From Eledone cirrhosa (taxonomy: Eukaryota): a stretch of DNA of 64,000 bases. A model generated the notes under the pieces. That model was not told the origin of the DNA. It ran no database searches and saw only the letters and a program-made list of their open reading frames with translations. The stretch covers positions 50,158,001-50,222,000 of the forward strand of contig OZ024746.1 in assembly GCA_964016885.1 (NCBI GenBank), written 5' to 3'. Of this stretch, positions 2,236-63,438 are shown in pieces; the first letter of the stretch is position 1, and the number at the start of each line of letters is the position of its first letter. A program made the translations under genes and the position numbers.

Positions 2236-2305
<70 letters not shown>

Positions 2306-2372
2306 GACGTAAAATAAGAAAATATTTTTTTAAAAAAATTTTAAAAAAATTTTTTTACTTACTTAAATTTTC

Positions 2373-2462
2373 ACTCCAACTAATTACTTTCTGCAATGGG
2401 ATAAAGACAGTTACGTAATACAACTGTCGAGAATTCATTGCGTCATCAGGGAGTCTATTCTC
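2373..2462 (-). ncRNA. Type I hammerhead ribozyme, extended (stem III carries a point change in this copy)
   Basis: Minus strand: ACUCC-CUGAUGA-C-GCAAUG...CAUUGC-A-GAAA-GUAAUUAG-UU-GGAGU. Confidence 0.75.
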
Positions 2463-2931
2463 AGTTAAGTCTGCAGGCAATGCGCGGACACTGGCGGCTC
2501 ATATAAAAATAATAATAATTCGGTAGATCGAACAGCTTGCGAGGACTGGATTCTATGTACCGAAATTCTCACTGCTTCAAGTCAAATGGCCGATTCTAAA
2601 GAATCAATCACGTGACACAGAGGCTAGTTAGAAGGAATGGGATGGTAAGATGACTGACGCCTACTAACACCCCCAAAAAAAAATTTCTTTAGAAGTGGTT
2701 TTGACAAGTTTGCTCGACAAATCAGTGATTTGGAGATAAATATAGATAATTTAATATATCAACTAACATAAGCGCACAGATGCACGCCCATGCCAGCAAA
2801 TACACAGGTTATGTCATAGTACCTAGGTGGTTCAATGCAGGAGAATGCAGAACAATAATATAAAGGACGTAAAATAAGAAAATATTTTTTTAAAAAAATT
2901 TTAAAAAAATTTTTTACTTACTTAAATTTTC

Positions 2932-3021
2932 ACTCCAACTAATTAGTTTCTGCAATGGGATAAAGACAGTTACGTAATACAACTGTCGAGAATTCATTGC
3001 GTCATCAGGGAGTCTATTCTC
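2932..3021 (-). ncRNA. Type I hammerhead ribozyme, extended, intact
   Basis: Stem I ACUCC/GGAGU, core CUGAUGA and GAAA, stem II GCAAUG/CAUUGC, palindromic stem III AACUAAUUAGUU, predicted cleavage after GUU. Confidence 0.85.
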
Positions 3022-3495
3022 AGTTAAGTCTCCAGGCAATGCGCGGACACTGGCGGCTCATATAAAAATAATAATAATTCGGTAGATCGAACAGCTTGCG
3101 AGGACTGGATTCTATGTACCGAAATTCTCACTGCTTCAAGTCAAATGGCCGATTCTAAAGAATCAATCACGTGACACAGAGGCTAGTTAGAAGGAATGGG
3201 ATGGTAAGATGACTGACGCCTACTAACACCCCCAAAAAAAAAATTTCTTTAGAAGTGGTTTTGACAAGTTTGCTCGACAAATCAGTGATTTGGAGATAAA
3301 TATAGATAATTTAATATATCAACTAACATAAGCGCACAGATGCACGCCCATGCCAGCAAATACACAGGTTATGTCATAGTACCTAGGTGGTGGTTCAATG
3401 CAGGAGAATGCAGAACAATAATATAAAGGACGTAAAATAAGAAAATATTTTTTTAAAAAAATTTTAAAAAAATTTTTTTACTTACTTAAATTTTC

Positions 3496-3585
3496 ACTCC
3501 AACTAATTAGTTTCTGCAATGGGATAAAGACAGTTACGTAATACAACTGTCGAGAATTCATTGCGTCATCAGGGAGTCTATTCTC
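3496..3585 (-). ncRNA. Type I hammerhead ribozyme, extended, intact
   Basis: Same motif as 2932-3021. Confidence 0.85.
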
Positions 3586-4041
3586 AGTTAAGTCTGCAGG
3601 CAATGCGCGGACACTGGCGGCTCATATAAAAATAATAATAATTCGGTAGATCGAACAGCTTGCGAGGACTGGATTCTATGTACCGAAATTCTCACTGCTT
3701 CAAGTCAAATGGCCGATTCTAAAGAATCAATCACGTGACACAGAGGCTAGTTAGAAGGAATGGGATGGTAAGATGACTGACGCCTACTAACACCCCCAAA
3801 AAAAAATTTCTTTAGAAGTGGTTTTGACAAGTTTGCTCGACAAATCAGTGATTTGGAGATAAATATAGATAATTTAATATATCAACTAACATAAGCGCAC
3901 AGATGCACGCCCATGCCAGCAAATACACAGGTTATGTCATAGTACCTAGGTGGTTCAATGCAGGAGAATGCAGAACAATAATATAAAGGACGTAAAATAA
4001 GAAAATATTTTTTTAAAAAAAATTTTAAAAAAATTTTTTTA

Positions 4042-4108
<67 letters not shown>

Positions 4109-4611: not shown

Positions 4612-5242
4612 TGTGGGGTCCGTTTTTTATTTGGGTACCCGTTTTTTATGGGGGGGATTGTTTTTTATTTGGCTGTCCGTCTTTTATGGGGGTGTGGTCC
4701 TTTTTTTATTTGGGTGCCCGTTTTTTATGGGGGGGGGGTTATGAGGCATCTGTGTTTTACGGGGGGTTTCGTTTTTTTATTTGGTGCCCGTTTTTTATGG
4801 GGGGGTCCATTTTCTTGTTTGGGTGCCCGTTTTTTTATGGGGTGGGTCCGTTTCCTTATTTGGGTGCCCGTTTTATGTGGGTGTATCCGTTTTTTATTTG
4901 GGTGTCCGTTTTTTATTTGTAAACGCGTTTTTTATAGGGGGTCCGTTTTTTATTTGGGAGCCCGTTTTTTATGGGAGGAGTCCGTTTTTTATTTGGGTGC
5001 CCGTTTTTTATGGGGAAGGGGTCCGTTTTTTATTCGGGTGCCCATTTTTTATGGAGGGGTCCGTTTTTTATTTGGGTGCCCGTTTTTATGGGGGGTCCGT
5101 TTTTTATTTGGGTGTCCGTTTTTATGGGGAAGTGTCCGTTTTTTATTTAGGTGCCCGTTTTTTTATGGGGGGAGTCCGTTTTTTATTTGGGTGCCAGTTT
5201 TTTAGGGGGGATGTTGGTCCGTTTTTTATTTGTGTGCCCATT

Positions 5243-5248
<6 letters not shown>
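4612..5248 (+). repeat. G/T-rich satellite, block 2
   Basis: Same monomer as block 1. Confidence 0.97.
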
Positions 5249-5273
<25 letters not shown>

Positions 5274-5426
5274 GGAAAAGACTCATGAACCCGCCGGCTA
5301 AGCTCCGGCCGTCTCGACAGCTAGGTCTGAACTAGCTGTTGAAGCGGCCGGAGCTCAGCCGTCGGGGTCCTGACTCTTTTCCTTGTAGCCACTCTGCTTT
5401 CTTGGTGCATTATGGTCCACCTGGTT
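5274..5426. other. Module D hairpin, copy 2 (truncated on the right by satellite)
   Basis: Matches 1368-1520 apart from one C>A change seen in the left arm. Confidence 0.9.
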
Positions 5427-8400
5427 TTTTATGGGGTGGGTCCGTTTCCTTATTTGGGTGCCCGTTTATTAGGGGAAGGTCCGTTTTTTATTTGTGTGCC
5501 CGTTTTTTATATGGGTGCCCGTTTTTCATGGGAGGGGGTCCGTTTTTTAGGGGGGTATATTGGTCCGTTTTTTATTTGGGTGCCCATTTTTAATGGAGGG
5601 GCGTTTTTTATTTGGATGCTCATTCTTTATGGGGGCGTCCGTTTCTATTTGGGTGCCCGTTTTTTATTGGGTGTGGATTCGTTTTTTATTTGGGTGCCCG
5701 TATTTTATGGGAGGGGTTTCGTTTTTTATTTGGGTGCACGTTTTTTATGAGGGGGTCCGTTTTTTATTTGGGTGCCCGTTTTTTATGGGGGGGGGGTGTC
5801 CGTTTTTTATTTGGTTGCCCGTTTTATATGGGGGGTTCTGTTTTTTATTTGGTTGCCGGTTTTTATGGGGGGTATCCGTTTTTATTTGGGTGCCCGTTTT
5901 TAATGAGGCGTACGTTTTTTATAGGGTGCCCGTTTTTTATTTGGGTGCCCTTTTATATGAGGGGTGTCCGTTTTTTATGGGGGTATCCGTCTTTATTTGG
6001 GTGCCTGTTTTTTATGGGGTGGGTTCGTTTTCTTATTTAGGTGCCCGTTTTTTATATGGGTGCCCGTTATTTTATTTGGGTGCCCGTTTTTAATGGAGGG
6101 GCGTTTTTTATTTGGAAGCTCGTTCTTTATGGGGGGAGTCCGTTTCAATTTGGGTGCCCGTTTTTTATTGGGTGGGGTTCCGATTTTTATTTGGGTGCCC
6201 GTTTTTTATGAGGGGGCCCGTTTTTTTATTTGGGTGCCCGTTTTTTATGGGGGGATCCATTTTTTATTTGGGTGCCCGTTTTTTATTGGGGGTTCCGTTT
6301 TTCATATGGGTGCCCGTTTTTTATTTGGGTGCCCGTTTTTGAGGGGGGATATTGGTCCGTTTTTTATTTGGGTGCCCGTTTTTTATGGGGGGTCCGTTTT
6401 TTATTTGGGTGCCAGTTTTTAATGGCTAGGGGCGTTTTTTATTTGGGTGCCCGTTTTTTATGGGGCGAGTCCTTTTCTGTTTGGGTGCCCGTTTTTTTTA
6501 TTGGGTGGAGTTTTTTTTATTTGGGTGCCCGTTTTTTATGGGAGGGGTCCGTTTTTCATTTCGCTGCCCGTTTTTTCTGGAGGGGGTCCGTTTTTTATTT
6601 GACCGCCCGTTTTTTATGAGGGGGTCCGTTTTTTATTTGGGTGCTCGATTTTTAGGGGGGAAGTCCGTTTTTTATGGGGGTGGTCCGTTTTTTATTTGGG
6701 TGGCCGTTTTTTATGGGGGCGTCCGTTTTTTCTTTGGGTGCCCGTTTTATATGGGGGATCCATTTTTTATTTGGGTGGCCGTTTTTTATGGGGGGGGGGT
6801 CCGTCTTTTATTTCGGTGCCCGTTTTTATGGGGTGAGGCCGTTTTCTTATTTGGCTGCCCGTTTTTTATGGGGGATCCATTTTTTATTTGGGTGCCCGTT
6901 TTTTATTGGGGGTTCCGTTTTTCATATGGGTGCCCGTTTTTTATTTGGGTGCCCGTTTTTGAGGGGGGATATTGGTCCGTTTTTTATTTGGGTGCCCGTT
7001 TTTTATGGGGGGTCCGTTTTTTATTTGGGTGCCAGTTTTTAATGGCTAGGGGCGTTTTTTATTTGGGTGCCCGTTTTTTATGAGGCTAGTCCTTTTCTAT
7101 TTGGGTGCCCGTTTTTTTATTGGGTGGAGTTTTTTTTATTTGGGTGCCCGTTTTTTATGGGAGGGGTCCGTTTTTTATTTCGCTGCCCGTTTTTTCTGGT
7201 GGGGGGTCCGTTTTTTATTTGACCGCCCGTTTTTTATGAGGGGGTCCGTTTTTTATTTGGGTGCTCGTTTTTTAAGGGGGAAGTCCGTTTTTTATGGGGG
7301 TGGTCCGTTTTTTATTTGGGTGGCCGTTTTTTATGGGGGCGTCCGTTTTTTCTTTGGGTGCCCGTTTTATATGGGGGATCCATTTTTTATTTGGGTGGCC
7401 GTTTTTTATGGGGGGGTCAGGCTTTTATTTGGGTGCCCGTTTTATATGGGGGGATCCGTTTTTTATTTGACTGTACGTTTTTTATGGTGGGGTGTCTGTT
7501 TTTTATTTGGGTGCCCGTTTTTTAGGGGGAGTGTTGGTCCGTTTTTTATTTGGGTCCCCGTTTTTTATGGGGGTCCGTTTTTTTATTAGGGTACCCATTT
7601 TTATAGGGGGTCCGTTTTATATTTGGGAGCCCGTTTTTTATGGGGGGAGTCCGTTTTTTATTTGGGTGCCCGTTTTTTATGGGGGGAGCCATTTTTTATT
7701 TGTGTGCCCGTTTTTTATGGGGGTCCGTTTTTTATTTAGGTACCCGTTTTTTATGGGGGGTCCGTTTTTTATTTGGGTGCCAGTTTTTTACGGGGTGGGG
7801 TACGATTTTTATTTGGGTGCCCTTTTTATGAGGGGTGTCCGTTTTTTATGGGGGTATCCGTTTTTATTTGGGTGCCTGTTTTTTATGGGGTGGGTTCGTT
7901 TTTTATATGGGTGCCCGTTTTTTTATTTGGGTGCCCGTTTTTAATTGAGGGGCGTTTTTTATTTGGAAGCTCGTTCTTTATGGGGGGAGTCCGTTTCTAT
8001 TTGGGTGCCCGTTTTTTATTGGGTGGGGATCCGTTTTTTATTTGGGTGCCCGTTTTTTATGGGAGGGGTTATGTTTTTTATTTGGGTGCCCGTTTTTTAT
8101 GAGGCGGCCCGTTTTTTTATTTGGGTGCCCGTTTTTAATGGATGTGCGTTTTTTATTTGGAAGCTCGTTCTTTATGGGGGGAGTCCGTTTCTATTTGGGT
8201 GCCCGTTTTTTATTGGGTGGGGATCCGTTTTTTATTTGGGTGCCCGTTTTTTATGGGAGGGGTTCCGAGTTTTATTTGGGTGCCCGTTTTTTATGAGGGG
8301 GCCCGTTTTTTTTATTTGGGTGCCCGTTTTTAATGGAGGTGCGTTTTTTATTTGGAAGCTCGTTCTTTATGGGGGAGTCCGTTTCTATTTGGGTACCCGT

Positions 8401-11400
8401 TTTTTATTTGGGTGCCCGTTTTTTATGGGAGGCGTTCCGTTTTTTATTTGGGTGCCCGTTTTTTATGAGGGGGTCCGTTTTTTTATTTGGGTGCCCGTTT
8501 TTTATGGGTGGGTCCGTTTTTTATTTGGGTGTCCGTGTTTTATGATGGGGGCTGTTTTATTTGGGCGCCCGTTTTTTAGGGGCTTGTTGGTCCACTTTTT
8601 AATTGGGGACTCGTTTTTTATGGGGGGTCCGTTTTTTTTTGGGGGGGGGGGGCGTTTTTTATTTGGATGCGCGTTTTTATGGGGTGGGGCCGTTTTCTTA
8701 TTTGGGTGCCCGTTTTTTATGGGAGGTGTCCGTTTCTTATTTCGGTGCCCGTTTTTTCTGGGGGGTCCGTTTTTTATTTGGGTGCCCGTTTTTATGGGGT
8801 GGGGCCGTTTTCTTATTTGGCTGCCCGTTTTTTATGGGGGGGATCCATTTTTTATTTGGGTGCTTGTTTTTTATTGGGGGTTCCGTTTTTCATATGGGTG
8901 CCCGTTTTTTATTTGGGTGCCCGTTTTTGAGGGGGGATATTGGTCCGTTTTTTATTTGGGTGCCCGTTTTTTATGGGGGGTCCGTTTTTTATTTGGGTGC
9001 CAGTTTTTAATGGCTAGGGGCGTTTTTTATTTGGGTGCCCGTTGTTTATGGGGCGAGTCCTTTTCTATTTGGGTGCACGTTTTTTTATTGGGTGGAGTTT
9101 TTTTTATTTGGGTGCGCGTTTTTTATGGGAGGGGTCCGTTTTTTATTTCGCTGCCCGTTTTTTCTGGAGGGGGTCCGTTTTTTATTTGACCGCCTTTTTT
9201 TATGAGGGGGTCCGTTTTTTATTTGGGTGCTCGTTTTTTAAGGGGGAAGTCCGTTTTTTATGGGGGGGTGTTCCGTTTTTTATTTAGGTGCCCGTTTTTT
9301 ATGGGGGGGTCCATTTTTTATTTGGGTGCCAGTTTTTTACGGGGTGGGGTACGATTTTTATTTGGGTGCCCTTTTTTATGAGGTGTGTCAGTTTTTTATG
9401 GGGGTATCCGTTTTTATTTGGGTGCCTGTTTTTTATGGGGTGGGTTCGTTTTCTTATTTAGGTGCCCATTTTTTATATGGGTGCCGTTTTTTTATTTGGG
9501 TGTCCGTTTTTAATGGAGGGCCGTTTTTTATTTGGAAGCTCGTTCTTTATGGGGGGGAGTCCGTTTCTATTTGGGTGCCCGTTTTTTATTGGGTGGGGAT
9601 CCGTTTTTTATTTGGGTGCCCGTTTTTTATGGGAGGGGTTATGTTTTTTATTTGGGTGCCCGTTTTTTATGAGGCGGCCCGTTTTTTTATTTGGGTGCCC
9701 GTTTTTAATGGATGTGCGTTTTTTATTTGGAAGCTCGTTCTTTATGGGGGGGTCCGTTTCTATTTGGGTGCCCGTTTTTTATTGGGTGGAGATCCGTTTT
9801 TTATTTGGGTGCCCGTTTTTTGTGGGAGGGGTTCCGATTTTTATTTGGGTGCCCGTCTTTTATGGGGTGGTCCGTTTTTTATTTGGGTGTCCGTGTTTTA
9901 TGGTGGGGGCTTTGTTTTATTTGGGCGCCCGTTTTTTAGGGGGCTGTTGGTCCACTTTTTAATTGAGGGCCCGTTTTTTATGGGGGGTCTGTTTTTTGTT
10001 GGGGGGTCCGTTCATTATTTGGATGCGCGTTTTTATGGGGTGGGGCCGTTTTCTTATTTGGGTGCCCGTTTTTATGAGGTGGGGCCGTTTTCTTATTTGG
10101 CTGCCCGTTTTTTATGGGGGGGATCCGTTTTTTATTTGGGTGCCCGTTTTTTATTGGGGTTCCGTTTTTCATATGGGTGCCCGTTTTTTATTTGGGTGCC
10201 CGTTTTTGAAGGGGGATATTGGTCCGTTTTTTATTTGGGTGCCCGTTTTTTATGGGGGATCCGTTTTATATTTGGGTTCCCGTTTTGGGGGGGGCCCGTT
10301 TTTATGCGGGGTGTCCGTTTTTATGCGGGGTCCGTTTTTTTTTCGGGTGCCCGCTTTTTATGGGGTGGGTTTGTTTTCTTATTTAGGTGCCCGTTTTGGG
10401 GGGGGCTTTTTTGTTTGGGTGCCCGTTTTTTATTAGGGTCCCCGTTTTTTATGGTTGGGTGGTCCGTTTTTTATTTGGGTGCGCATTTTTCATGGAGGTG
10501 TCCGTTGTTTTATTTGGGAGCCCGTTTTTATGGGGGCTATCCGTTTTTTTTATGGGTGCCCTTTTTTTAGGGGGAGGTCCGTTTATTATTTGGGTGCCCA
10601 TTTTTTATGGAGGAGGGGGTACGTTTTTTATTTGGGTGCCAGTTTTTAATGGCTGGGGCGTGTTTTATTTGGGTACCCGTTTTTTATTGGGTGAAGGTCC
10701 GTTTTTTATTTGGGTGCCCGTTTTTTATGAGAGGGTCCGTTTTTTATTTGGGTGTCCGTTTTTTTATGGCGGGGGTCAGTTTGTCATGGTGGGTGGTCCG
10801 TTTTTTATTTGGGTGCCCGTTTTTTATGGAGGGGATCCGTTTTTCATTAGGGTGCCCTTTTTTATGGTGGGGTCGTCCGTTTTTTATTTGTGTGCGCATT
10901 TTTCATGGAGGTGTCCGTTTTTTTATGGGTGCCCGTTTTTTTAAGGGGGAGGTCCGTTTATTATTTGAGAGCCCGTTTTTTATGGGGCGAGTCCGTTTCT
11001 ATTTGGGTGCCCGTTTTTTGGAAGGGGTCCGTTTATTATTTGGGTGCCCGCTTTTTATGGGAGGGGGTCTGTTTTTTATTTCGATGCCCGTTTTTTCTGG
11101 GGTATGTCCGTATTTTATTTGGGCACCTGTTTTTTATGAGGGGGTCCGTTTTTTATTTGGTTGCCTGATTTTTATGGGGGAGGTCCTTTTTTATTGGTGG
11201 TGGTCCATTTTCTATTTGGGTGGCCGTTTTTTATGGGGGGGTCCGTTTTTATTTGGGTGTCCGTATTATTAGGGGGGATCCGTTTTTTATTTGGGTGCCC
11301 GTTTTATATGAGGGGATCCGTTTTTATTTGGGTGACCCTTTTTTATGGTGAGGTTTCCGTTTTTTATTTGGATGCCCGTTTTTCATGGGGGTGGGGCATT

Positions 11401-11555
11401 TTTTATTTGGGTGCCCGTTTTTTTGGGGGGGTGTTAGTTCGTTTTTTATAGGCGGTCCGATTTTTATTTGGGTGCCCTTTTTATGAGGGGTGTCCGTTTT
11501 TTATGGGGTGTATCCGTTTTTATTTGGATGCCTGTTTTTTATGGGGGGTTCTTTT
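5427..11555 (+). repeat. G/T-rich satellite, block 3
   Basis: Same monomer; marker AATGGCTAGG at 6421, 7041 and ~9009 shows higher-order duplication. Confidence 0.97.
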
Positions 11556-11863: not shown

Positions 11864-12082
11864 TTTCTGAATTTGTTTAGCAAGATTCTTTATCTGAAAT
11901 CGTGGTGTGTTGAAACCGATATTGTTATACCTTGGGAGGGTCATGTTGCCAATAAGTAACACACGCACCAGTTGCTTTCACTTCAATTTATTATTTTAAT
12001 AAATTTATAATAAATTTATAAATTTATAAATTTCTAGTTGGTTGGTTGGTTGGTTCCACAACCAGATAGTTGTTTATATATT

Positions 12083-12125
12083 GTCATAGTTCTTTCGTCA
12101 CACACTCTGTGACCTCTTCAGTGAC
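12083..12125 (-). ncRNA. Minimal type I hammerhead ribozyme of PLE1
   Basis: GUCA-CUGAAGA-G-GUCACA(GAGUG)UGUGAC-GAAA-GAAC-UA-UGAC. Confidence 0.85.
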
Positions 12126-12324
12126 TGGGGATTCCTTTCTTTGTTTCTGTGCCTCTCCTTTGTTCTGTCCTACGCCATTTTGTTTCTGCGTGTGTTGTGT
12201 GCTCAGTCTGCGCATGCGCCACATCCGGGTGTCTGTGTGTATTTATGTTCATTTATTTATTTGTTTATTTACATGTTACTGGTTGGTTGTTTGTTCTATG
12301 TGTGTGTGTGTTTTCATTTTGTCC

Positions 12325-15300
12325 TTAATTGTAAGTTGTGATGTTGCTGTTCCACTCATATTTTCTATTTAATTTTGGTTGTAATTCTTTTATGTTTATT
12401 GCCTCTGTAATTTGTCTAAACATTGCGTCTTTTCTGTGTGTAGATTCTATTTTTATTTCTATGTACTCTAATTTACCCTTGTGTTCTATTTTAGCATGTT
12501 GGTAGAGTACAGATGATTCTTTACTGTCTTGAAGGTCTCACCAGTGTTCATTTATCCGTTCCCCTACACTACGAGCTGTCTCACCTATGTACACTATATT
12601 TTTGTCTCTACATTGTCCTTCAGTACATCTTATGCTATACACTACATTTCTAGTTTTACAGTTAATATGGGGGCTTATATTACAGGTTATACATTTCTTA
12701 TCTATACATGAGGGTCTTTGAAAAGGGTATGTCTTGCTATTAAGTGTTTTTACTGAGGTACCTGGTCTTTCTACTATCTTAATATTGAGTTTATGTTTAT
12801 TTAGGGCCCTTCGAAATTTGTAAGCTAATTCACCTCTAGGGGTTGTATCGATGAACATTACACTCTGGTATTTATTGCTATCATACCATGAGTTTATTCT
12901 ATTAGCTTTGTTCCTAGTTCTTTCTATTCTATTCCAAAATTTGCTCCTATACAAGGGGCACGTCCCATTTATGTCATTATTTACCATTTTTTCCCATTTG
13001 GTTCTGGCTCGTCTATACACTCTCATTTTATCTCTCTGATTGTAGCCAGAGAACTGCATACGGTGGATGAAGTGTTGTATGTGTCTCTAGTTCTTCGGGG
13101 TTGCACATGCGGGACACGTTTCTCATCACCCGTACCAAATCCGCAATCAGTATGTTGATTTTGGTATGGTCCGAAACGGCCGAGTTTCGGTGGATCAGAT
13201 GTTTGGAAGTCATGGGTTTGGCATAATGGGAATGGAGGATTTGTTTTTTGTTATTAATGGTATCTAACCAGAGCTCTGTGTCTAGTAGAGGTAATCGATG
13301 GTTGGGGTGTTTACTTGGGTAGTCTATAGTAACTCTAATGCTCTGGTGGATGGAGTTAGCTATTTGCTGGATGCTTTCCATTGTGTTTTTCTCTAGTTCC
13401 TGACTGTTCTCTAGTGGGGGTGTCTTAACTACGATGTTTATATCCTCAACGTAGCGGGAGTACATTATCAGGGTTAAGGGGTCTTCTAATTGTTCTTTAA
13501 GCTTAAGTTTAAGTCTACTGTCCCACCATACCATGAATAAGTTAGCTATGTCGCCTGCAATGCTAACACCAATGGCTGCTCCTTCCTCTTGGGCATATGT
13601 TTTTCCATTAAATTTGAACATATGTTCCTTAAGGGTTAGTTTTATGCTGGCCCCTACCGCATGTGCAATCATTTTCTTCAGTTCATCGTGGTTTTCGGGT
13701 GTCCGTGTGGCTCTGGTCCACCCGTTCCATCTATCTGTGTGGGTTTTCTTGGCCATTGAGGTAATGGTAGGTGGTCTGCCTCTTGCTGGTCTTGTAGGGC
13801 ACAGGTTGCTAAGGTCATATGTGTCTAGGTAATTATTACTATAGGTAAGTTTAAGTAGGAGTCCCAGCTCACTGGTATCAATCCCACGGAACTCAACATT
13901 GCTCTCACTGATCATTTCTACGCATTTCTCCACAGCAAAATCCACGTCAATAGATGGATACAGGGACACAACATCCATACTACCTATTATGCAGTTTGTT
14001 AGGTCCCTAGATCGGTTACTCACGCCGATTCTGCTGAGGAGGTCCTCCGTGTTGTCACATATATCTGGGGACATTTCGATGATGGGGCGTATGATCAGGG
14101 AGAGGAAGTAGGACAGTCTGTAGTTATTAGCAATGTTAGCTCCACAGACTGGCCGTGTTGGTGGTCCCGCGACAGGGTTACAGCCCGTTTTATGGTCTTT
14201 CGAAGCCCATACAACGCCGGCACGTCATTGTTCCAGGCCTGGAAGTTGTTGGCAGTCCTTTTGTTGGGCTGCATTATATTCGCCCACATCACCATATGGG
14301 CATTGAGGGCTTTTTCTCTATCCTCATGCTCCTGTGGTGTTACCTCTCTTGTGTTAATGATGTGGGGTTGCATTGCCTGGATGTAGTTTGGCAGGCTGTC
14401 AACCGACATTCTGCCAGACTTGTCTGTTGGAAAGCATGCTATCTCTCCATTACGCGAGCGCTGCATGAGCTTACGCAAGCCATTTGCAGATTTTTCTCCC
14501 AGTTGCTGGGCCTCCATTCTATTATGCTTCTTGCTATACTGTTCTATAATATTTCTAAGTTCGGATCTAGCTATACTAAATTGTGCTTCTGTTTGTTCAT
14601 CGACCTGCGACGGCAATTGCGTGCGTTTGTTAAATGGTAAAGTCGTGGCGTGGACTCGTCGCAGGTCGAACGATTTATCGGAGGGATTATAAAAAGTAGA
14701 GTTCCAGGCTGCTGCTTTATGTGTACTAGTGCTATTGTTATTGTTAATTCTGTTGTTTCTATTTCTATTTCCACCAACAGCCTCATGGTTGTTTCTATGT
14801 CTCTCATAATTACTCCTGTCTCTTTCCACTGGCTCATTGTTGTTATCTACCCTATTTTCTGTGTCTGTGTGTTCGTCTTGGTTATTTTCTTTGTCCTTAG
14901 TCTCCCTTCTCCTTTTAATCCTATTACTTTCCCTTATTTCTGTGATTTCTGTGCTACTGTCATTACTTGTTCTCTGTGTCTGTGTGTTTGTTAAGATTGT
15001 GGTGGTGATGAGAGGCATTGAATGTGTGTGTGTTGTTGTTGTTGAGGTGTGCTGTTGTTGATGTGTGTTGTTGTTGTCTCCGTGTGTGTTATTATTGTTT
15101 TGTGTGTTGTTATTGTTGTTTGTGTCTGCGTGTCTGTTGTTGTTGTTTCTGGGTATGTTATTATTGTTGTTGTTGTTGGTGTGTGTGTTGTTGTTATTGT
15201 TGTTTGTGGCTGTGTGTCTGTTGTTGTTGGGATGTGTGTTGTATATGTGTGTGCGTATATTGTTGCTTTTGTTTTTGTTTTTATTTTTGAGGCTCCAGCG

Positions 15301-15576
15301 TAGTTTTGTAAATGATTTTTCTATTTCTGACTGACAACTAATCATATTTACCTTCTTGAATGTCGCATACTTAGGTGGAAGTTGTAATGCAGATAATTCA
15401 TCGTTATCTATTATTGTGTTGCCGTATATATTTGTGTTGTTGTTGTTGTTGAACTCATCTGTTAATGAGGTGTCGGCCATATTTATACCGTCAATTTTGT
15501 CGGGATATCTATTGGTATTCTCTATAGTATCCTGATTTAGCTTTATCTGCTTAAGCCACTTTAGTTTCTTGTTAAA
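12325..15576 (-). pseudogene. PLE1 polyprotein (Asn/His/Thr-rich region, reverse transcriptase, Cys-rich linker, GIY-YIG endonuclease), disrupted
   Basis: Motifs PTDKSGR, GSMDVVSLYPSI, GAAIGVSIAGDIANLFM, RYVEDI and NVVY...YIGETAR; frameshifts near 14190 and 13070; TGA at 12538 where the inverted copy has CGA. Confidence 0.92.
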
Positions 15577-16333
15577 ATAAGCCCCCATATTAACTGTAAA
15601 ACTAGAAATGTAGTGTATAGCATAAGATGTACTGAAGGACAATGTAGAGACAAAAATATAGTGTACATAGGTGAGACAGCTCGTAGTGTAGGGGAACGGA
15701 TAAATGAACACTGGCGAGACCTTCAAGACAGTAAAGAATCATCTGTACTCTACCAACATGCTAAAATAGAACACAAGGGTAAATTAGAGAACATAGAAAT
15801 AAAAATAGAATCTACACACAGAAAAGACGCAATGTTTAGACAAATTACAGAGGCAATAAACATAAAAGAATTACAACCAAAATTAAATAGAAAATATGAG
15901 TGGAACAGCAACATCACAACTTACAATTAATGACAAAATGAAAACACACACACACATAGAACAAACAACCAACCAGTAACATGTAAATAAACAAATAAAT
16001 AAATGAACATAAACACACACAGACACCCGGATGTGGCGCATGCGCAGACTGAGCACACAACACACACACAGAAACAAAATGGCGTAGGACAGAACAAAGG
16101 AGAGGCACAGAAACAAAGAAAGGAATCCCCCGTCACTGAAGAGGTCACAGAGTGTGTGACGAAAGAACTATGACAATATATAAACAACTATCTGGTTGTG
16201 GAACCAACCAACCAACCAGAAATTTATAAATTTATGAATTTATTATAAATTTATTATAATAATAAATTGAAGTGAAAGCAACTGGTGCGTGTGTTTCTTA
16301 TTGGCAACATGACCCTCCCAAAGTATAACAATA
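15577..16333 (+). repeat. Inverted copy of the PLE1 3' end (GIY-YIG coding part to 15930, UTR, hammerhead)
   Basis: Reverse complement of 11920-12678; ORF YSIRCTEGQCRDKNIVYIGETARSVGERINEH...LNRKYEW. Confidence 0.95.
16132..16174 (+). ncRNA. Minimal type I hammerhead ribozyme (inverted copy)
   Basis: GTCACTGAAGAGGTCACAGAGTGTGTGACGAAAGAACTATGAC. Confidence 0.85.
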
Positions 16334-16394
<61 letters not shown>

Positions 16395-16521
16395 AAAGTT
16401 TTATTTAAAATTGTTGGGTTACAACAAGTAAATATTTTATAACTGATATAAAGCACTCAACAAGTTTTGGAGTAGATATACGATATTAAACAAATGGAAA
16501 CTATATTTATAAAACCATATC

Positions 16522-16587
16522 TATTTCATTATACATATTTCGGGGATACCATATTAAAAATATGGCATGCCGTCTTCAGATAAAATA
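16522..16587 (-). ncRNA. Type I hammerhead ribozyme of PLE2
   Basis: UAUUUUAU-CUGAAGA-C-GGCAUGCCAUA(UUUUUAA)UAUGGUAUCCC-C-GAAA-UAUGUA-UA-AUGAAAUA; the inverted copy has AUAAAAUA, a perfect stem I partner. Confidence 0.8.
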
Positions 16588-18211
16588 CAATATATAAACA
16601 GTTTTATAAATAATTTTGACGTACCATAAATATTGATCAACTTGTATGTAAGAAGTTGGTTTGGTAGTGAAATGTTTATAAATATTTAGTGTTAAGCACA
16701 GTTAAAAAGAAAGACGGAGAAAAAGAAGAAATGTATGTAAAGAAAAACAGAGAGAAATAGAGAGAGATAGGGGAGAGAGAAATAGTGAGGAGGTGAAAAA
16801 AGAGACGCAGCTGAGGCAACAGATGAATAATAATAATTTATCATACAAATTGAGAGATTTAGGAGGGAGTACTGTACTTATTTAGTTATAGTGTTAAGGA
16901 GACGGAGAGAAATAAAAAATGAAGAGAAAACAGAGAGAGAGAGAAAGATAGAGGTGGGGGGAAAAAAGAGGTAGACCAAATAATAATAAGTATTATATAT
17001 GGCGAGGTGAGAGAAATAGGAAAGAAGTAAGAGAGAAAATAAGAGAGAAACTCGAGAGGCAAAGTTAAAATAACCGATACTTAGACTTCATCAAATATAA
17101 AGAGGGAGGAGAAGAAAGAGCTATATCAAGAGAGAGGGATGATAGATTTACATCTTTACGTTATGTCCTATCAATTTGAATTATCAATTCATATGAATTG
17201 GGTATTATAATGTAAATATCAATATTCATGAATGAGACATAGATATATAATGTGTGAAAAATAATGACCATATGTTTAGTTTAAAATTCTGAGGTCGATG
17301 TACCAAAAACTGAGATAAAATTTCAAAAAATACGGAAATATATAAGTATATATGTACTTTCCGGAAAAGGAAAGAAAGAGAAAAAGAGAAGGTCATCTCA
17401 AGTTCTAGTTGATACTATAGACATACCCATGATCTTACGTGATCAACTCTGTAATTTCTTGTTTCACAGAAAAAAAAATGTTTCCCTTGTGTTATAAAAG
17501 ATTTTACTATATATATATATACATAAAAAATATATATTAATACTCCTGCCCTCACATACATGATTATCGTTCATGTATAGAATATTATGCATATCTGTAA
17601 CATATCCAGAGCTATACCCACACATACATATATATATATATATATGTATGCACACATATATGCACATGGACAGATAAAATAAACAGATAAAATAAAATAT
17701 ACTCTGTAATCATTCCATATTCATATTAATACATATGGCCTTTGTACAGAGACAACCAGATATTAATATATCAGCACAGAGATATCAAAACGTTAAAAAT
17801 ATTTTCATCACTCCCTAGAGTATCTCGGGCCGTAAAAAACACAGTATGCACCCCATATCAACCACAGAAATATACGCTTCCAATTTATCTGACAATATAT
17901 TGCCAAGTTCATTAGAAGCAATCAGAATCAAAAAGCAAACAAAAAACCAAAAATTATTCAACAAAACTTATTTAGCAGAAATCATTTAAAAGATTTAGGA
18001 GACCCTGTTGTTCTACAGATGCTCTTATATTTAGTATAGAAGTTTATCTAGCGTAAAATTTATTCAATAGATTGGGAGCATCTACATTTTAGGGTAGTTT
18101 AATTACATCATTAGTATATATTTATGAAGAAGGTTTAAAAGAAAAAGTTGAAGGAATCGAAAGATTTATCGTCAGGTTTCATACATTAATTAAATATCTT
18201 AACTAATTATA

Positions 18212-20455
18212 CTACATTTTAAATTTATATTTATATTTAAACGTTGAGTTCAATCTATGTCTGCAGCAACTGAATAAATTGCTCCTTAAATTAAGGACAT
18301 TTTTAGATTTTAATATAAAGAATATCTCCTCCACACAGAGGTCACATGTCTCAGATGAGGAATTAAAAGGAATCCCTCTTGAGACAATATTCCAAAACAT
18401 CGAATACCCAACGTTATCATGTTTAAGTTGCCAGAGTAAGCCTGATAGTGAAGTTGAAGATTTCTTGTTTGGATCTGTGAAAGAATTCTTATGATTATTG
18501 TAGCGAAGTTTAAATTCTGTCGAGGTGGAACCAACATAGTTAAAAGAATTTAAGTTAGTTTTAACATTACAATTGTATATTATATTTTTAACTAAGCAAT
18601 TGTTATTTAACGGACATTTAGATTTATTTCTACAGTTACAGTTGTTTAATTGAATATTGTTTTGGCTATTATCGGTATTTTGGCTAGGTTTTAGATTCCT
18701 ATTATTTATTCTGTTAATATTTTGTGCTAAATTTTTGGTGGACGAGTTAGTTAATTTTATAGTATGTCTATTAAAAATTGAGTGATATTTATGTGTTCTA
18801 GGGAAGCGTTTGTCAAGAGCATTAAAAAATAGTTTAGCAATGTGGGTTTTAATATTTAGTGAGAAAGGGGGGGGCGAACCATATTATATTTCTAGTTCTA
18901 TTTCTTTTCTGGCTTTTGGAATTATTGTAATGTTTTCTATTATAGTTGTTAAAGTTGTTACCGTAATTAAAATTGTTATTATAACGTTTGCCTATTTAAA
19001 ATTGTTATTATAACGTTTGCCTATTATTATCGATGTACTTAATTTAATAACTATATCCTGCTCTAGCTAACGCTTCATTGTAATACTGCGCTTTTTCGTC
19101 GAAAATATTTTTATTAGATGAAATTCTTGAGATACGTTCTTGAACAGAGTTCACTATAGTATTTTTAACAGATCTGGGGTGGTTAGAGTTAAAATTGACA
19201 TAATTCAAGTTTTCATTTAGTTTGTGAAATGGATAGTGAAGACATGTGTTGAGATTTAGTGTTACATCTAGGAAATTGACTATTCTATGGTTATTCTCTA
19301 TTTCTATTTTTAGATTAAGGTAATTAAAAAATTGTATAATTTGTTTTCTTTTTCTATTTAGTTCAGAGTTATTATTTTCAATAAGTAAAAGCATTTCATC
19401 ACGATATAATCCTCCGGTTACACCAGGTATTTTTCTATGCAGCGAATTAATTATAAATAGGCCCACAAGGTCCGTTACCTGAGCTGAGTCAGATGATCCC
19501 ATAGTAATGTCGAAATTATTATCTCTATCTGCCCTAGTCCATAGTTGGTTATTAAATTCTATCAATGTTTTCCTTGCCGATAATATAATGTGCATTTCAT
19601 TGCTAGTTAGGTCTGTATGTTTGAATGCGTAATTTAGTGCCTTATTCAGTAGATTAGGGGTAATAGATGAATAGTAGTTAGCAATATCTAGTTGAATAAA
19701 TTTATTAGTATTGTTATATTTAATTTCTTTAAACCATTCAATAACCTCACCAGTCCCCTTCCATAAGTTTAAGTTAGGTAAATTATGTAAGTTTTTAATT
19801 TGCTGTATCACCCTGTCTAGAATGTTTTTGCTAAGTTTACCCAGGTCGGATTTTGATGGTGCAATCAATCTGACTGGCAAATCATTTTCAAAATTTCTTT
19901 TGTGATCTTTCATATTGATCTTGGGTTTCCTAGGCAAGAAGGGTTGTGTTTTGTTCTCAATGTCCAACTCATGCATTATACAAGATGCCTCAACATTCAT
20001 TTTTTCCAGTTCGTCCTTATCTGCTACCTTGTACTTTTTCCTTAGTTCTTTCAATATAAGGCCATTATACATGTCTTTATGCACTCCATAAAGGTTGTTG
20101 GTTTTGTCCGATTTCACCAAGATCTTCTCTGTTCTCTCCAAGCCTTCAATATTATCCTTAATGCTTCTTAGATAGTCCTGGTCTTTGAAGTTTCTCTTGA
20201 ATTTGACTCCTTGTATGATAGAAATTATATCGTTTTCAAAATCCATTAAAAGTTTGTTGGGGGTGGATTTTTTTTAGATTTGAAAACTTTATCTAAGTCT
20301 CAAACATTTTCATTTAGATTAGATTTATCAAAGTGGAAGGCACGCCACCTGATTCTTCTTATAAAAGAGTCTGATTTTTCTATTAATTGTTTAATAAAGT
20401 CTTTGTTCTTAGGTAGAGGTATGTCTTTTAGAGAAGAAGATATCTTAAAGAATTC
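18212..20455 (-). pseudogene. PLE2 polyprotein (RT + GIY-YIG), disrupted
   Basis: FIRRIRWRAFHF, VKSDKTNNLY, LDIANYYSSI, FDITMGSSDSAQVTDLVG, GLYRDE, NFLDVTLNL, SNHP, IIWFAPPFS, CNCRNKSKCPLNNNC, NIIY...YVGST, CDLC...CCRHR; stops and frameshifts separate these blocks. Confidence 0.92.
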
Positions 20456-20550
20456 CGTTTTTTTTTTTTTTTAATATGGTATCCCCGAAATATGTATAAT
20501 AAAATAAATATGGTTTTATAAATATAGTTTCCATTTGTTTAATATCGTAT

Positions 20551-20671
<121 letters not shown>

Positions 20672-20768
20672 AATATATATATATATAAATATATATATAT
20701 ATATCTAAATATATATGAGAGACGTAAAATAAGAAAATTATAAAATTAACTTACTTACTAAAATATCA

Positions 20769-20857
20769 CTTCCAACTAATTAGTTTCTGAAATGGAATAA
20801 ATATATTTTCCGAAGAAAACATCGAGAATCATTTCGTCGTCGGGGAAGACTATTCTC
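20769..20857 (-). ncRNA. Extended hammerhead, core mutated (CCGACGA)
   Basis: CUUCC-CCGACGA-C-GAAAUG...CAUUUC-A-GAAA-CUAAUUAG-UU-GGAAG. Confidence 0.7.
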
Positions 20858-21290
20858 ATCTAAGTATCCAGGCAAAGCGGGGACTCTGGAAACTTATTCA
20901 AATATAATTCAGTGGATAGAAAATAGCAAATCGTGGACTGAATTCCTAGCCATTGAGAAAATCACTGCCTCTGCGTCGGTGGCAAATTCAAAAAGAATCA
21001 ATCACGTGACATCGAGGTCAATCATTTGAAAGTGGTTTGCTAATAAGACAGCGGCCTGCCTGCTACCATAGCAGCAGTCGTGGCCAATATTGCTCGACAA
21101 ATAATTTGGAGATAATTATAAAGAATTAATATCTAGTAACATATATATACATACAGATGCATATCAATGCTAGCAAATATATAGGTTTTGTCTTAGTAAC
21201 TTTGTGGTTCAATGCATGGGGTTGCAGAACAATAATATGAGAGACGTAAAATAAGAAAATTATAAAATTAACTTACTTACTAAAATATCA

Positions 21291-21379
21291 CTTCCAACTA
21301 ATTAGTTTCTGAAATGGAATAAATATATTTTCCGAAGAAAACATAGAGAATCATTTCGTCGTCAGGGAAGACTATTCTC
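21291..21379 (-). ncRNA. Extended type I hammerhead, intact core (CUGACGA)
   Basis: Stem I CUUCC/GGAAG, stem II GAAAUG/CAUUUC, inner hairpin with cUUCGg loop. Confidence 0.85.
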
Positions 21380-21418
21380 ATCAGGCAAAACGGGGACTCT
21401 GGAAACTTATTCAAAAAT

Positions 21419-24400
21419 ATTTGGGTGCCCGTTTTTTAGGGGGGGGGATTCGTTTTTTATTTGGGTGCCCGTTTTTTAGGGTGGGGTGTTGTCCGTTTTT
21501 TATTTGAGTTCCCTTTTTTATGGGCAGGTCCGTTTTTTTTTTGGGGGGGTCCCCTTATTTTGGGGGGTGTTGGTCCGTTTTTTATTTGGGTGCCCTTCTT
21601 TATGGGGGGATTCCGTTTTTATTTGGGTGCCCGTGTCTTATGGAGGGGATCCGTTTCTTATTAGGGTGCCCATTTTTTATGGAGGTGTCCTTTTTTTATT
21701 TGGTTGCCCGATTTTTATGGGGGAGGTACTCGTTTTTTATTCCGGTGCCCGATTTTAATGGGGGTCTTTTTTGATTTCGGTGGCCTTTTTTATGGAGGGG
21801 TCCGGTTTTATTTAGGTTCCCGTTTTTTATGGGGCGGTCGGTTTTTATTAGCGTGACCGTTTTTTATGGGGGGGCTCCGTTTTTTATGGGGGGGTCCGTT
21901 TTTCATTTGGGTGCCAGTTTTATGGGGGGATTCCGTTTTTATATGGGTGCCTGTTTTTTATTGGGGTGTCCGTTTTTTATGGGAGCGTCCGTTTTTTTTA
22001 TATGGGTGCCCGTTTTTTATTTGGGTGCCCGTTTTTTATGGGGGTGTCGGTCTTTCCTTTGGGTGCCCCTTTTTTGTAGGGGTCCGTTTTTCATTTGGGT
22101 GCCTGTATTTTATGGGGGTCCGTTTTTTATTTAGTTGCCCGTTTTTTAGGGGGGTGTTGGTCCGTTTTTTATTTGGGTGTTCGTTTTTCATTTGGGTGAC
22201 CATTTTTTATCAGGGGGTCCGTGTATTTTGGGGTGCCTTTTTTATGGGGGGTCCTTTTTTTTGTTTGGCTCCCCGTTTTTCATGGGGGGTCCGATTTTAT
22301 ATGGGTGTCCGTATATTATGTGGGGGTCCGTTTTTTATTTGTGTGCTCGTTTATTATGGGGGGACGTCCACTTTTTATTTGTGTGCCCTTTCCTTATGGG
22401 GAGGTCCGTTTTTTATTTGGGTGCCCGTATTTTATTTGGGTGCCCATTTTTTATGGGGCGCTCCGTTTTTACATTTGGGTGCTTGTTTTTTCATTTGGGT
22501 ACGCTTTTTTTTTATTTGGGTGGCTGTATCTTTATGGGGGGTCCGTTTTCTATTTGGGTGCCCGTTGCTTATGGAGGGTGCGTTTTTTATTTGGGTACCC
22601 GTATTTTATTGGGGGAGTCCGTTTTTTATTTCGGTGCCTGTTTTTTATCAGGTGGTCCGTTTATTTTTGGGTGCCTTTTTTATGGGGGATCCTTTTTTTT
22701 ATTTGGCTGTCCGTTTTTTCATTTGGGTACGCTTTTTTTTATTTGGGTGCCTGTATTTTTATGGGGGGTCCGTTTTCTATTTGGGTGCCCGTTGCTTATG
22801 GAGGGTGCGTTTTTTATTTGGGTACCCGTATTTTATTGGGGGGTCCGTTTTTTATCAGGTGGTCCGTTTATTTTTGGGTGCCTTTTTTATGGGGGGTCCT
22901 TTTTTTTATTTGGCTGTCCGTTTCATATGGGGGGTCCGATTTTATATGGGTGCCCGTATATTATGGGAGGGGTCCGTTTTTTATTTGAGTGGCCATTTTT
23001 TAGGGGGGTGTTGGTCCGTTTTTTATTTGGGGGCCCGTTTTTTATTTGGGGGCCCGTTTTTTATGGGGTGGGTTCCGTTTTTATTTGGGTGGGGTTTTTT
23101 TATTTGGGTGCCCGTTTTTTATTGGGGTGTCCGTTTTTCATTTGGGTGCCCGTTTTTTATGGGGGAGTCCGTTTATTATTCGGTTTCCCGTATTTTATTT
23201 GGGTGCCCGTTTTTTAAGGGGGGCCCGTTTTTATTTTATTTGGTTGCCCGTTTTTTATGGGGGGCCCGTTTTTCGTTTGGGTGCCAGTTTCTTATGTGGG
23301 GGTCCGTTTTTATTTGGGTGCCCGTTTTTTATGGGGGGGCCGTTTTTCGTTTGGGTGCCCGATTTTTATGGGGGGTCTGATTTTATTTGAGTGCCCGTAT
23401 TTTATGGGGGGTCCGTTTTTATTTGGGTGGGGTTTTTTTTATTTGGGTGCCCGTTTTTTATGTGGAGGGTCCGTTTTTTATTTGGGTGTCTGTGTTATAT
23501 TTCGGTGCCCGTTTTTTATAGGAGTGTCCGTTTTTCATTTGGGTGCCAGTATTTTATGGGGGTCCGTTTTTTATTTGGGTGCCCGTTTTTTATTGGGGTG
23601 TCCGTTTTTCATTTGGGTGCCCGTTTTTTATGGGGGAGTCCGTTTACTATTCGGTTTCCCGTATTTTATTTGGGTGCCCGTTTTTTAAGGGGGGTCCGTT
23701 TTTTTTATTTGGGTGCCCGTTTTTTATTGGGGATCCGTTTTTATTTGGGTGCCCGTTTTTTATGGGAGGGTCCGTTTCTCGTTTGGGTGCCCGTTTCTTA
23801 TGTGGGGGTCCGTTTTTATGTAGGTGCCCGTTTTTTATGGGGGGTCCGTTTTTCGTTTGAGTGCCCGATTTTTATGGGGGAGGTGCTCGTTATTTATGGG
23901 GGGTCCGTTTTTTATTCGGGTGCTCGTTTTTCATGGGGGGTGACCGTTTTTTATTTGGGTGCCCGTATTTTATTTGGGTGCCCTTTTTTATGGGGGGTCC
24001 TTTTTTATTTGGGTGCCCGTTTTATATTTCGGTGCCCGTTTTTATGGGGGTGTCCGTTTTTTATTAGGGTGCCAGTATTTTATTTGGGTGGTCGTTTTGG
24101 GGGAGGGGATGTCCGCTTTTTAGTTGGGTGCCCGTATCTTTATGGTGGGGGGTCCGGTTTTTTTTTCGGGTGGTGCCCTTTTTTAATGAGGGGGTCCTTT
24201 TTTTCTTGGTGGGGGTACGGTTTTATTTGGGTGCCCGTTTTTTATTGAGGTGTCCGTTTTGTATTTGGGTGCCCGTTTTTTATGGTTGAGTCCGTTTTTC
24301 ATTTGGGTGCGCGTATTTTATGGGCGTCCGTTTTTTATATGGGTGTCCGTATTTAATGTGGGGAGTCCGTTTTTTATTTGGGTGCCCGTTTTTTATAGGA

Positions 24401-62376: not shown

Positions 62377-62841
62377 TAGCGCGTGCCTGAGAGGGGTGCA
62401 GAATTAATTTCGCCCGGTGAACCCCAACCAAAGTTACTCCCGTCGTTTATATCCGTAAAGTGACTAAAGATTAAAACAAATGTAATATATTTACGGTTAG
62501 GGTTGAGGCGATACTTGGTTTTAGTGTCCTAAATTATCATCATCGACATTCAATTATTAGCTCCACCCACTACACGAAACGTCACGACACGTCATCAGCT
62601 GCTGCTGCTTGATTTTTACATGTTAATTTTCTTATATGCTTCATTTTTACACGAAAAAACATTGAATTTTTAGAATAAATATTTATTAAAATATTAACAG
62701 AGAAAATTAGATTTTTGATTTATTTTTTGAACAAAATAAATATTTATTTACAGTTTTTCACAGAAAAACTATGCTTCATTTTTACATGAATATTTATTTA
62801 CAGTTTTTAACAACAGAAAAAAAAATTATTTAAACAATATA

Positions 62842-63438
62842 TTGTTGCGATATACAGTAATTTTTTTTTACCGGTGCAATTTTATGCGTGATGTATGTAG
62901 TGAATGGGTTGAACAAAATCCGGCGATACTCGGTGGTCTTGATTCTAACGGAATACCAATAACTGTACAAATTGATGAGAGCAAATATTTTCATCGTAAA
63001 TATGCTTGTGGGCTCTGGCATGAAGGACATTGGGTCATTGGCGGAATTGATACTAATAATCCCTGCAATATTTTTCTCCATGAAATCCCTGATTGGACTG
63101 CTGAGACTCTGCTGCCTCTCATTGAAAGGCACTGTGCAAATGGATCTATGATCCATACAGATGAGTGGCGGGCGTACAATAAAATGCCAAATTTGCCTGG
63201 TCGTTATACACATCTCACTGTCAATCATTCAAAGCATTTCGTTGATCCCATATCAAGTACACACACGCAAAATATTGAGGGGATGTGGTCTCATGCCAAA
63301 AAGAAACTAAAATGCATCAATGGTACCAGCGGACCAATATTTCAGTCGTATTTAAGGGAGTTTGAGTGGCGATGGCGCAATGCCACGTATCTAACTGGTA
63401 AAGGTAAATGTTTCGAAAAAAATGTGGCGATCGCTTAA
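62842..63438 (+). CDS. Merlin / IS1595-ISXO2-like DDE transposase, catalytic part (N-terminus missing)
   Basis: VQIDESK..HRKY..G, WVIGGI, AETLLPLI, IHTDEWRAY, HLTVNHSKHFVDP, HTQNIEGMW: D, D and E triad present. Confidence 0.9.
   Translation: MLRYTVIFFYRCNFMRDVCSEWVEQNPAILGGLDSNGIPITVQIDESKYFHRKYACGLWHEGHWVIGGIDTNNPCNIFLHEIPDWTAETLLPLIERHCANGSMIHTDEWRAYNKMPNLPGRYTHLTVNHSKHFVDPISSTHTQNIEGMWSHAKKKLKCINGTSGPIFQSYLREFEWRWRNATYLTGKGKCFEKNVAIA

Follow-up and report, generated by a model that had tools for sequence, protein, structure and literature searches.

A branched type I hammerhead motif in a non-coding tandem repeat of Eledone cirrhosa with Penelope-type insertion structure

In the stretch of Eledone cirrhosa DNA analysed here (64,000 nucleotides of contig OZ024746.1, below called the window), comparison of the segments 2932-3021 and 21291-21379 had led a sequence-only reading to propose a hammerhead ribozyme of unusual architecture, with a strand upstream of stem I pairing to a loop of helix II and with cleavage possibly occurring in a dimer. 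The locus raises the question whether this motif is a genuine hammerhead, which parts of its periphery are maintained, and what kind of element carries and mobilizes it. The motif is a variant of the hammerheads of non-LTR retrozymes and Penelope-like elements, and each of its peripheral traits has precedent.

Anatomy and conservation of the hammerhead

The minus strand of 2932-3021 is a type I hammerhead, with the core CUGANGA ... GAAA ... UH present in type I order and a predicted cut at GUU^G, between 2937 (U17) and 2936. The order on this strand is flank GAGAAU, two linker bases, stem I strand ACUCC, core CUGAUGA, a C, helix II strand GCAAUG, AAUUCUC, a 7-bp hairpin, UUUAUCC, CAUUGC, an A, GAAA, stem III, U17 and GGAGU. 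All hammerhead elements that the sequence-only reading had named were found on the minus strand of both 2932-3021 and 21291-21379. The window contains five copies of the branched hammerhead, three in a first tandem array and two in a second, as listed below.

2303-4044, minus strand: tandem array of about 3.1 units of 559-564 nt in (TA)n; its 3' end is at site 1 and its 5' end lies 17 nt past the next predicted cut
2373-2462, minus: hammerhead copy with stem III broken by a C15.2-to-G change
2932-3021, minus: type I hammerhead of subfamily A, intact, predicted cut 2937/2936
3017-3021, minus: 5' flank strand GAGAA of the proposed pseudoknot, with the U at 3016 as optional sixth base
3013-3009 and 2936-2932, minus: stem I strands ACUCC and GGAGU
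3008-3002, minus: core CUGAUGA, followed by C at 3001
3000-2995 and 2957-2952, minus: helix II strands GCAAUG and CAUUGC
2994-2988, minus: AAUUCUC, 5' side of the internal loop
2988-2992, minus: loop strand UUCUC of the proposed pseudoknot, in the 5' side of the helix II internal loop
2965-2987, minus: distal hairpin P2b (GACAGUU/AACUGUC), which caps the helix II internal loop
2958-2964, minus: unpaired conserved strand UUUAYYC (UUUAUCC in this copy), 3' side of the internal loop
2951, minus: A before GAAA
2938-2947, minus: palindromic stem III of 10 nt, as 3-bp hairpin or intermolecular duplex
2937, minus: U17
3167-3174, no strand assigned: conserved palindrome TCACGTGA, which we take to be E-box-like, in 65 of 74 units
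3496-3585, minus: third hammerhead copy of the first array, intact
20717-21420, minus: subfamily B array of about 1.35 units of 522 nt, ending in (TA)n
20769-20857, minus: subfamily B hammerhead with the core change U4-to-C
21291-21379, minus: subfamily B hammerhead, core intact, layout as in 2932-3021

Genome-wide counts (3.0 Gb) place the motif beyond chance, with 10,533 matches to a pattern running from core to stem III compared with 17 for the reversed control, and 13,041 exact matches to the 17-nt stem III word with none for its control. The repeat is present in more than 10,000 genomic copies. Its core is invariant, and it is kept across subfamilies that are only 69% alike, the identity found over 513 nt between the subfamily B array and subfamily A; both arrays of the window end in (TA)n. 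Helices I, II and III can all be formed, helix II with covariation, stem III without variation, and stem I with variation by indels and wobble pairs, its two strands being of unequal length in some subfamilies. Two of the differences first noted between the cited copies were misread: the apparent exchange of stem I (ACUCC/GGAGU against CUUCC/GGAAG) is really a one-pair insertion (ACUCC/GGAGU against ACUUCC/GGAAGU), and the extra hairpins, described as unrelated in sequence, are alignable homologues between which intermediates exist. There is little doubt that the hammerhead is real and under selection, and it likely self-cleaves at GUU^G.

Helix II was studied in 194 distinct copies with homologous 5' flank, taken from fetched loci and enriched for rarer subfamilies rather than sampled at random. 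Among these, pair 2 takes all four Watson-Crick forms (G-C 60, A-U 57, U-A 41, C-G 34, other 2), pair 5 is U-A in 113, G-C in 66 and something else in 15, and the first pair is G-C in 190. The inner segment forms at least 7 pairs in 162 of the 194 copies, and usually leaves 6-7 unpaired bases on the 5' side and 7 on the 3' side. Pair covariation and the folding of the inner segment thus define a branched helix II, consisting of 6 bp, an asymmetric internal loop and a hairpin of 7-9 bp. In a plain MAFFT alignment of 60 representatives, with 18 pairs whose columns are in register, 95.6% of the cells are paired and 86 cells show two-sided change; either value was reached in 0 of 500 shuffles, and slid controls were 27-47% paired. 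All four tested pairs of the distal hairpin show two-sided changes. The expectation of covariation in a larger alignment was therefore borne out strongly for helix II and the hairpin, but measures that count pairs or types, and so resist relatedness, stayed within the shuffles (237 and 409 of 500). Helix II appears in the minimum-energy fold of only 27 of the 60 representatives, and the active fold without the pseudoknot lies on average 5.6 kcal/mol above the minimum. Two further contacts were considered, a pairing of UUUAYYC with bases after stem I and a triple helix on the pseudoknot; inspection by eye showed no covariation and gave them no support.

The pairing of the 5' flank with the loop had been proposed as a pseudoknot of 6 bp with covariation between the two cited copies. 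Since GAGAAU and AUUCUC are identical in 2932-3021 and 21291-21379, these copies provide no such covariation, and the helix was instead tested genome-wide, where other subfamilies supply it. The middle pair (pair 3) is G-C in 7071 copies, G-U in 212, A-U in 190 and A-C in 45, a few copies being matched by two patterns; the flank base is A in 47% of the copies whose loop has U but in 0.6% of those whose loop has C. The A-C copies are scattered across many helix II types and subfamilies, as is expected from decay after insertion. The A-U copies form nearly one lineage, 96 of 100 among the matches listed sharing one helix II type. When a tree was built from flank sequence only, using 33 copies whose homologous flank measures 250 nt or more, it allowed one or two origins for A-U and placed G-U forms in separate branches. 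GGAAAA faces UUUUCY in one daughter subfamily, and GAAAAG faces CUUUUC in another. In the register that maximises pairing, pairs 1-5 are kept in 96-98% of the 194 copies (93% on plain MAFFT columns) and the sixth in just 39%, which supports five pairs with an optional sixth rather than six. In the 60-row alignment two-sided change is absent from four of the five pairs. The connection between the stem I and stem II sides thus consists of five pairs, one of them with two-sided change and with at least one compensatory origin. A correlation between the length of stem I and that of the linker before UUCUC was inconsistent and was dropped.

From the genome-wide pair counts and the conservation of its pairs, the flank/loop helix is probably real, with 5 bp, and we find it rather likely, with somewhat less assurance, that it is the pseudoknot of the active fold. 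It might instead belong to an inactive fold that arises early during transcription, wraps around the core and postpones cutting, in which case it would not serve as a tertiary clamp. Nested, enclosing pairing of this kind does occur in the minimum-energy fold of the 21291-21379 copy and of 16 of the 60 representatives, it is missing from that fold in the other 44 rows, and covariation alone is unable to separate both folds. A delay would also suit a template that keeps one ribozyme intact, as the lack of excess stops at the first ribozyme crossed would have it (see below). However, helix II and the hairpin that flank UUCUC covary more strongly than the flank/loop helix, and its connectivity, from a flank by stem I to a stem II loop, is that of published rate-enhancing pseudoknots (PMC3088659), which makes the inactive fold an unlikely explanation. 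Since the pseudoknot pair occurs in nature as G-C, G-U and A-U, mutant and rescue constructs for it already exist among the genomic copies.

At the step adjoining the core the Watson-Crick 10.1-11.1 pair is absent, with C.A or A.A in its place. A C-A mismatch, as first described, is found in most copies, but whole subfamilies have A after A9: the base after A9 differs from C in 445 copies, including those subfamilies (A.A), and the base before G12 differs from A in only 46 copies, against about 10,500, all 46 being sporadic and without an amplified C-G form. The step may be read as a 10.1-11.1 mismatch or, equally well, as the conserved G-C pair plus a single added base on either side. The 10.1-11.1 pair served as a filter in PMC3088659, and natural exceptions, among them a U.U step in the same paper, have been published. 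Penelope hammerheads have been described as carrying an additional base after A9 (PMC4209133). By our count from file S2 of PMC8557442, U.U precedes G12 in 14 of 25 Hydra-clade families, and PLE-X1_cBra in that file has a C.A step above a 6-bp helix II.

The palindrome on which dimerization had been based is present, but its 12-nt version takes in A14 and U17 of the core, and stem III proper is the 10-nt ACUAAUUAGU. It is invariant in the 60 rows, partly by construction of the search patterns, and offers no compensatory changes; with six positions left free it was kept in 99 of 100 matches listed. The same strand can also close on itself as 3 bp with an AAUU loop. A stem III dimer is plausible because the isolated 3-bp hairpin costs +1.5 kcal/mol and the 10-bp duplex gives -9.0 kcal/mol, and palindromic stem III dimers have precedent (PMC4209133, PMC7229834, PMC6765202). 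On these energies it is an even call whether cleavage would need the dimer, and a monomer with a 3-bp stem III is possible. The 12-bp duplex (-10.8 kcal/mol) could be inactive by trapping A14 and U17. In a single copy, L031 (G000:C2:60548629-60548702), stem III is two bases longer and still palindromic, a weak observation.

No Rfam hammerhead model matched in the window (E<=1), or in the local stretch or six other subfamily loci (E<=10). The miss is not proof of novelty, because Rfam likewise misses two other hammerhead types in the window, including ordinary Penelope hammerheads. A metagenome scan for the motif gave 0 matches.

The repeat, its insertions and their 5' ends

The motif occurs once per unit of a non-coding tandem repeat with units of 513-594 nt; in the 74 natural units examined no Met ORF exceeds 86 aa. 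Tandem non-coding units with one type I hammerhead each are what characterizes non-LTR retrozymes. A look for expression in small shares of four sequencing runs yielded no match to the unit, which counts neither for nor against its transcription. Judged by its sequence, the conserved TCACGTGA may be an (internal) promoter element.

Insertion ends were examined in 111 loci of 3-5.5 kb among the matches listed, nearly all on contig C1, which are about 110 of thousands of insertions. In this set two 3' sites, approximately 58-82 and 165-217 nt past the cut, account for the ends of 184 out of 196 arms, and the 3' ends adjoin a microsatellite in 114 of the 120 checked. Among the 78 inverted pairs in head-to-head arrangement, the two arms divide between these sites in 67 and share a single site in one. 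The insertions are thus partial tandems with an inverted, 5'-truncated arm, a tail at one end and a (TA)n target, which is the insertion mode of Penelope-like elements; inverted arm, tail and (TA)n preference are traits described for these (PMC8557442). In addition, their tail has been shown to be the stretch between two start sites of reverse transcription (PMC11167929), so that the two fixed 3' ends found here constitute a Penelope-type hallmark. No ORF for reverse transcriptase and GIY-YIG endonuclease lies inside the repeat unit in the loci examined, which excludes an autonomous Penelope-like element there, and none of the neighbours checked was identified as the mobilizing element. We hold it highly probable that the repeat is a non-autonomous element with Penelope-type mobilization, likely copied in trans by a Penelope-like reverse transcriptase/endonuclease.

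The 5' ends of the arms were counted only once the first ribozyme had been passed, with positions taken from BLAST that may be off by a few bases. In 71 loci, 11 ends fall +1 to +30 past the next predicted cut compared with 3.2 expected (P about 5e-4, the bin having been chosen after seeing the data). With the test noted beforehand, 40 new loci gave 6 ends against 1.7 expected (P about 0.009). Pooled, there are 17 ends against 4.9; their density is 8.4 per 1000 nt, whereas the next bin, which is more AT-rich, has 1.8 and the value elsewhere is 2.2. The window's own array, which is outside both locus sets, ends at +17. At the first ribozyme crossed by reverse transcriptase, where 4 stops fall in 2701 nt as compared with 11 in 6196 nt, there is no such excess. 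This asymmetry fits a linear template of which the upstream ribozyme was cut and the downstream one left intact; neither a simple circle nor stalling at a uniform rate would account for it. Nor do the 5' ends pile up at one full circle, as a circular template would lead one to expect. We lean towards cleavage in vivo as the cause of the excess. Published results point the other way: in vitro, a Penelope-like element inserted without need for cleavage and without RNA ends at the site (PMC11167929), and frog retrozyme dimers were uncleaved in 8 of 9 cases (bioRxiv 10.64898/2026.07.22.740005).

The same ends allow for a hammerhead that is real and rarely cuts in vivo, being kept as a binding signal for reverse transcriptase or as a folding signal, the 5' ends reflecting a transcription start near +14 or stalling of the enzyme. 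They range from +1 to +25 with only one at +1 and are centred on +13 (the median), a start of transcription near this place is possible, and stops within the ribozyme body (4.4 per 1000 nt) are about twice the background of 2.2. The repeat has TTAGT words at about +12 and within stem III that we liken to an initiator, and the conserved word presumed to be E-box-like hints at an internal promoter. The GUU site and the mismatch beside G12 may slow cutting, and published Penelope hammerheads of low activity are known (PMC4209133, PMC11167929). Yet a start at +14 would leave unexplained the 7 ends out of 17 that map to +1 to +10, upstream of it, stalling would be expected at the first ribozyme crossed as well but is not seen there, and rare cutting is hard to reconcile with a core conserved over subfamilies so far diverged. 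On this evidence a rarely cutting hammerhead seems improbable.

Retrozymes are reported to derive from pseudo-LTRs (bioRxiv 10.64898/2026.07.22.740005) and Hydra-like and Neptune-like reverse transcriptase or endonuclease fragments lie near many copies, but it is distinctly improbable that the unit is a pseudo-LTR belonging to some rare, autonomous Penelope-like element of which most copies are truncated remnants, as in the about 110 insertions examined the arms run unit into unit and stop in (TA)n or at the inversion point, (TA)n separates the unit from the two neighbours examined in full, similarity to five UTR stretches is limited to poly(A), and 0 of 30 loci of the window's Hydra-like endonuclease have the motif within 1.5 kb. 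Since those endonuclease loci are without the motif and the neighbouring element has a hammerhead of its own, the unit is best read as a non-autonomous element that co-targets (TA)n. For the same kind of reason 20717-21420 was rejected as pseudo-LTR of the reverse transcriptase element at 16392-20548, which has its own 3' UTR and hammerhead.

The neighbouring elements were described in their own right. The element at 16392-20548 (minus strand) is a Hydra-clade-like Penelope element with a reverse transcriptase ORF (20273-19044) and an endonuclease ORF (18883-18212) and the Hydra-clade motifs DKT, CxCx5C, CxxC and CxH. It exists in at least 150 near-identical copies; its 3' UTR, of about 1.8 kb, is unusually long, and 88 nt of its 3' end recur in inverted orientation at 20468-20555. 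Its 3' end, at about 16515-16590 (minus), carries a second hammerhead type with an 8-bp stem I, CUGAAGA, a C.C step, a long unbranched helix II, a near-palindromic stem III and a UA site; another Hydra-like family (L058, about 1215-1285) has a similar hammerhead with another palindrome. A second Penelope-like element (11920-16333), which we presume from its linker to be Neptune-like, has reverse transcriptase (14224-13028) and GIY-YIG (13086-12538) frames on the minus strand, and inverted arms of about 640 nt. A minimal hammerhead lies in each arm, at 12121 (minus) and at 16136 (plus), and has a single additional base after A9. Pfam searches with these two elements gave weak or no matches. A very long 19-bp satellite (1-1300, 4615-11540 and 21420-59900; GC skew about +0.35, AT skew about -0.69) has (TA)n tracts and mobile elements embedded in it, and twice, at 1367-1477 and 5273-5383, a G+C-rich element with 111-nt inverted arms that adjoins (TA)n. 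At 62740-63438 (plus) lies an open frame of 232 aa that looks by eye like a DDE transposase, presumably of the IS1595/Merlin kind.

Relation to known hammerheads and a possible mode of action

Similar to the repeat described here, non-LTR retrozymes consist of non-coding tandem units with one type I hammerhead each, occur in thousands of copies, have a short stem III and coexist with autonomous Penelope-like elements (PMC7229834; bioRxiv 10.64898/2026.07.22.740005). The units of 513-594 nt compare with RNAs of 170-400 nt in PMC7229834 and with 51-972 bp in the bioRxiv paper. The retrozymes make the canonical contact between loop 1 and loop 2, whereas the Eledone motif has a branched helix II and a base-paired contact with the flank. 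The insertions also differ, being here inverted, two-armed and in (TA)n with two fixed 3' ends; the words 'inverted' and 'microsatellite' are absent from the main text of PMC7229834.

Hydra-clade pseudo-LTR hammerheads (PMC4209133; PMC8557442 file S2) share with the motif the type I order, a short stem I, a long helix II closed by G-C, an extra base after A9, a palindromic stem III and a non-Watson-Crick step before G12, and the elements themselves share the (TA)n target, the inverted truncated arm and the tail. Their loops II measure 3-10 nt in file S2 of PMC8557442, which mentions neither internal loop nor hairpin nor pseudoknot for them; the structure found here is branched. The tail is about 120 nt here as compared with 30-40 in Hydra-clade elements, and no ORF is attached.

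Pseudoknots between stems I and II occur in about 40% of hammerheads and have been reported in types I, II and III (PMC3088659). In those of Perreault 2011 (PMC3088659), including human C10orf118, a helix of 4-6 bp (5 bp in human C10) joins the stem I side to the stem II side, as in the present motif. In the text of that paper we saw no case like the present motif, where a single strand of an internal loop, which a hairpin of 7-9 bp closes off, acts as receptor and is combined with a palindromic stem III. The crystallised PK hammerhead (Zhan 2024, PMC11300833) shares the hammerhead core, a pseudoknot and an extra stem, but there the pseudoknot replaces helix II, which in the present motif is intact and covaries. 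Non-circular permutations of the hammerhead (PMC10085705) likewise differ from it. Novelty was accordingly overstated at first, as stem I/II pseudoknots, palindromic stem III dimers and the C.A step have each been published. In the literature searched we found no description of a helix II internal loop with a distal hairpin as pseudoknot receptor, although figures and supplements of the related papers may hold a similar fold, nor one of a pile-up of 5' ends at a hammerhead cut. The fold widens the periphery of the hammerhead and does not found a new class.

The observations can be joined into a working model, in which each unit carries a self-cleaving hammerhead with a 5-bp pseudoknot, inserts as inverted arms in (TA)n and is copied in trans by a Penelope-like enzyme; taken as a whole we judge it reasonably likely. 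Transcription would pass through the tandem units. The pairing of GAGAA with UUCUC would stack on the distal hairpin and hold stem I alongside stem II, in place of the usual loop-loop contact. On its own stem III would close weakly, as a hairpin of 3 bp, whereas neighbouring units could form a 10-bp duplex through it, for which reason tandem copies would cut faster. The template RNA would owe its 5' end to a cut by the upstream ribozyme and would retain the downstream one uncut, perhaps since reverse transcriptase needs it. The enzyme would then nick both strands of (TA)n and prime at the two sites approximately 58-82 and 165-217 nt past the cut, to give the head-to-head arms.

More tentatively, and rather doubtfully at present, two roles may be assigned to the same ribozyme in a Penelope-dependent retrozyme whose branched helix II clamps the 5' flank and whose stem III dimerizes: the upstream copy would cut and set the 5' end of the RNA, and the downstream copy would stay uncut as a handle for reverse transcriptase. 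If this were true, the thousands of insertions would be a fossil record of ribozyme cleavage in vivo and of two-site priming, and the first direct footprint of the function of a Penelope-type hammerhead. The role of these hammerheads, and the question of Penelope-like enzymes moving animal retrozymes, are left open in PMC8557442, PMC11167929 and bioRxiv 10.64898/2026.07.22.740005. With more than 10,000 copies in many subfamilies, insertion ends bearing the two-site signature of Penelope-like reverse transcription, no protein of its own and 5' ends in surplus at the predicted cut, the repeat offers a direct handle on both.
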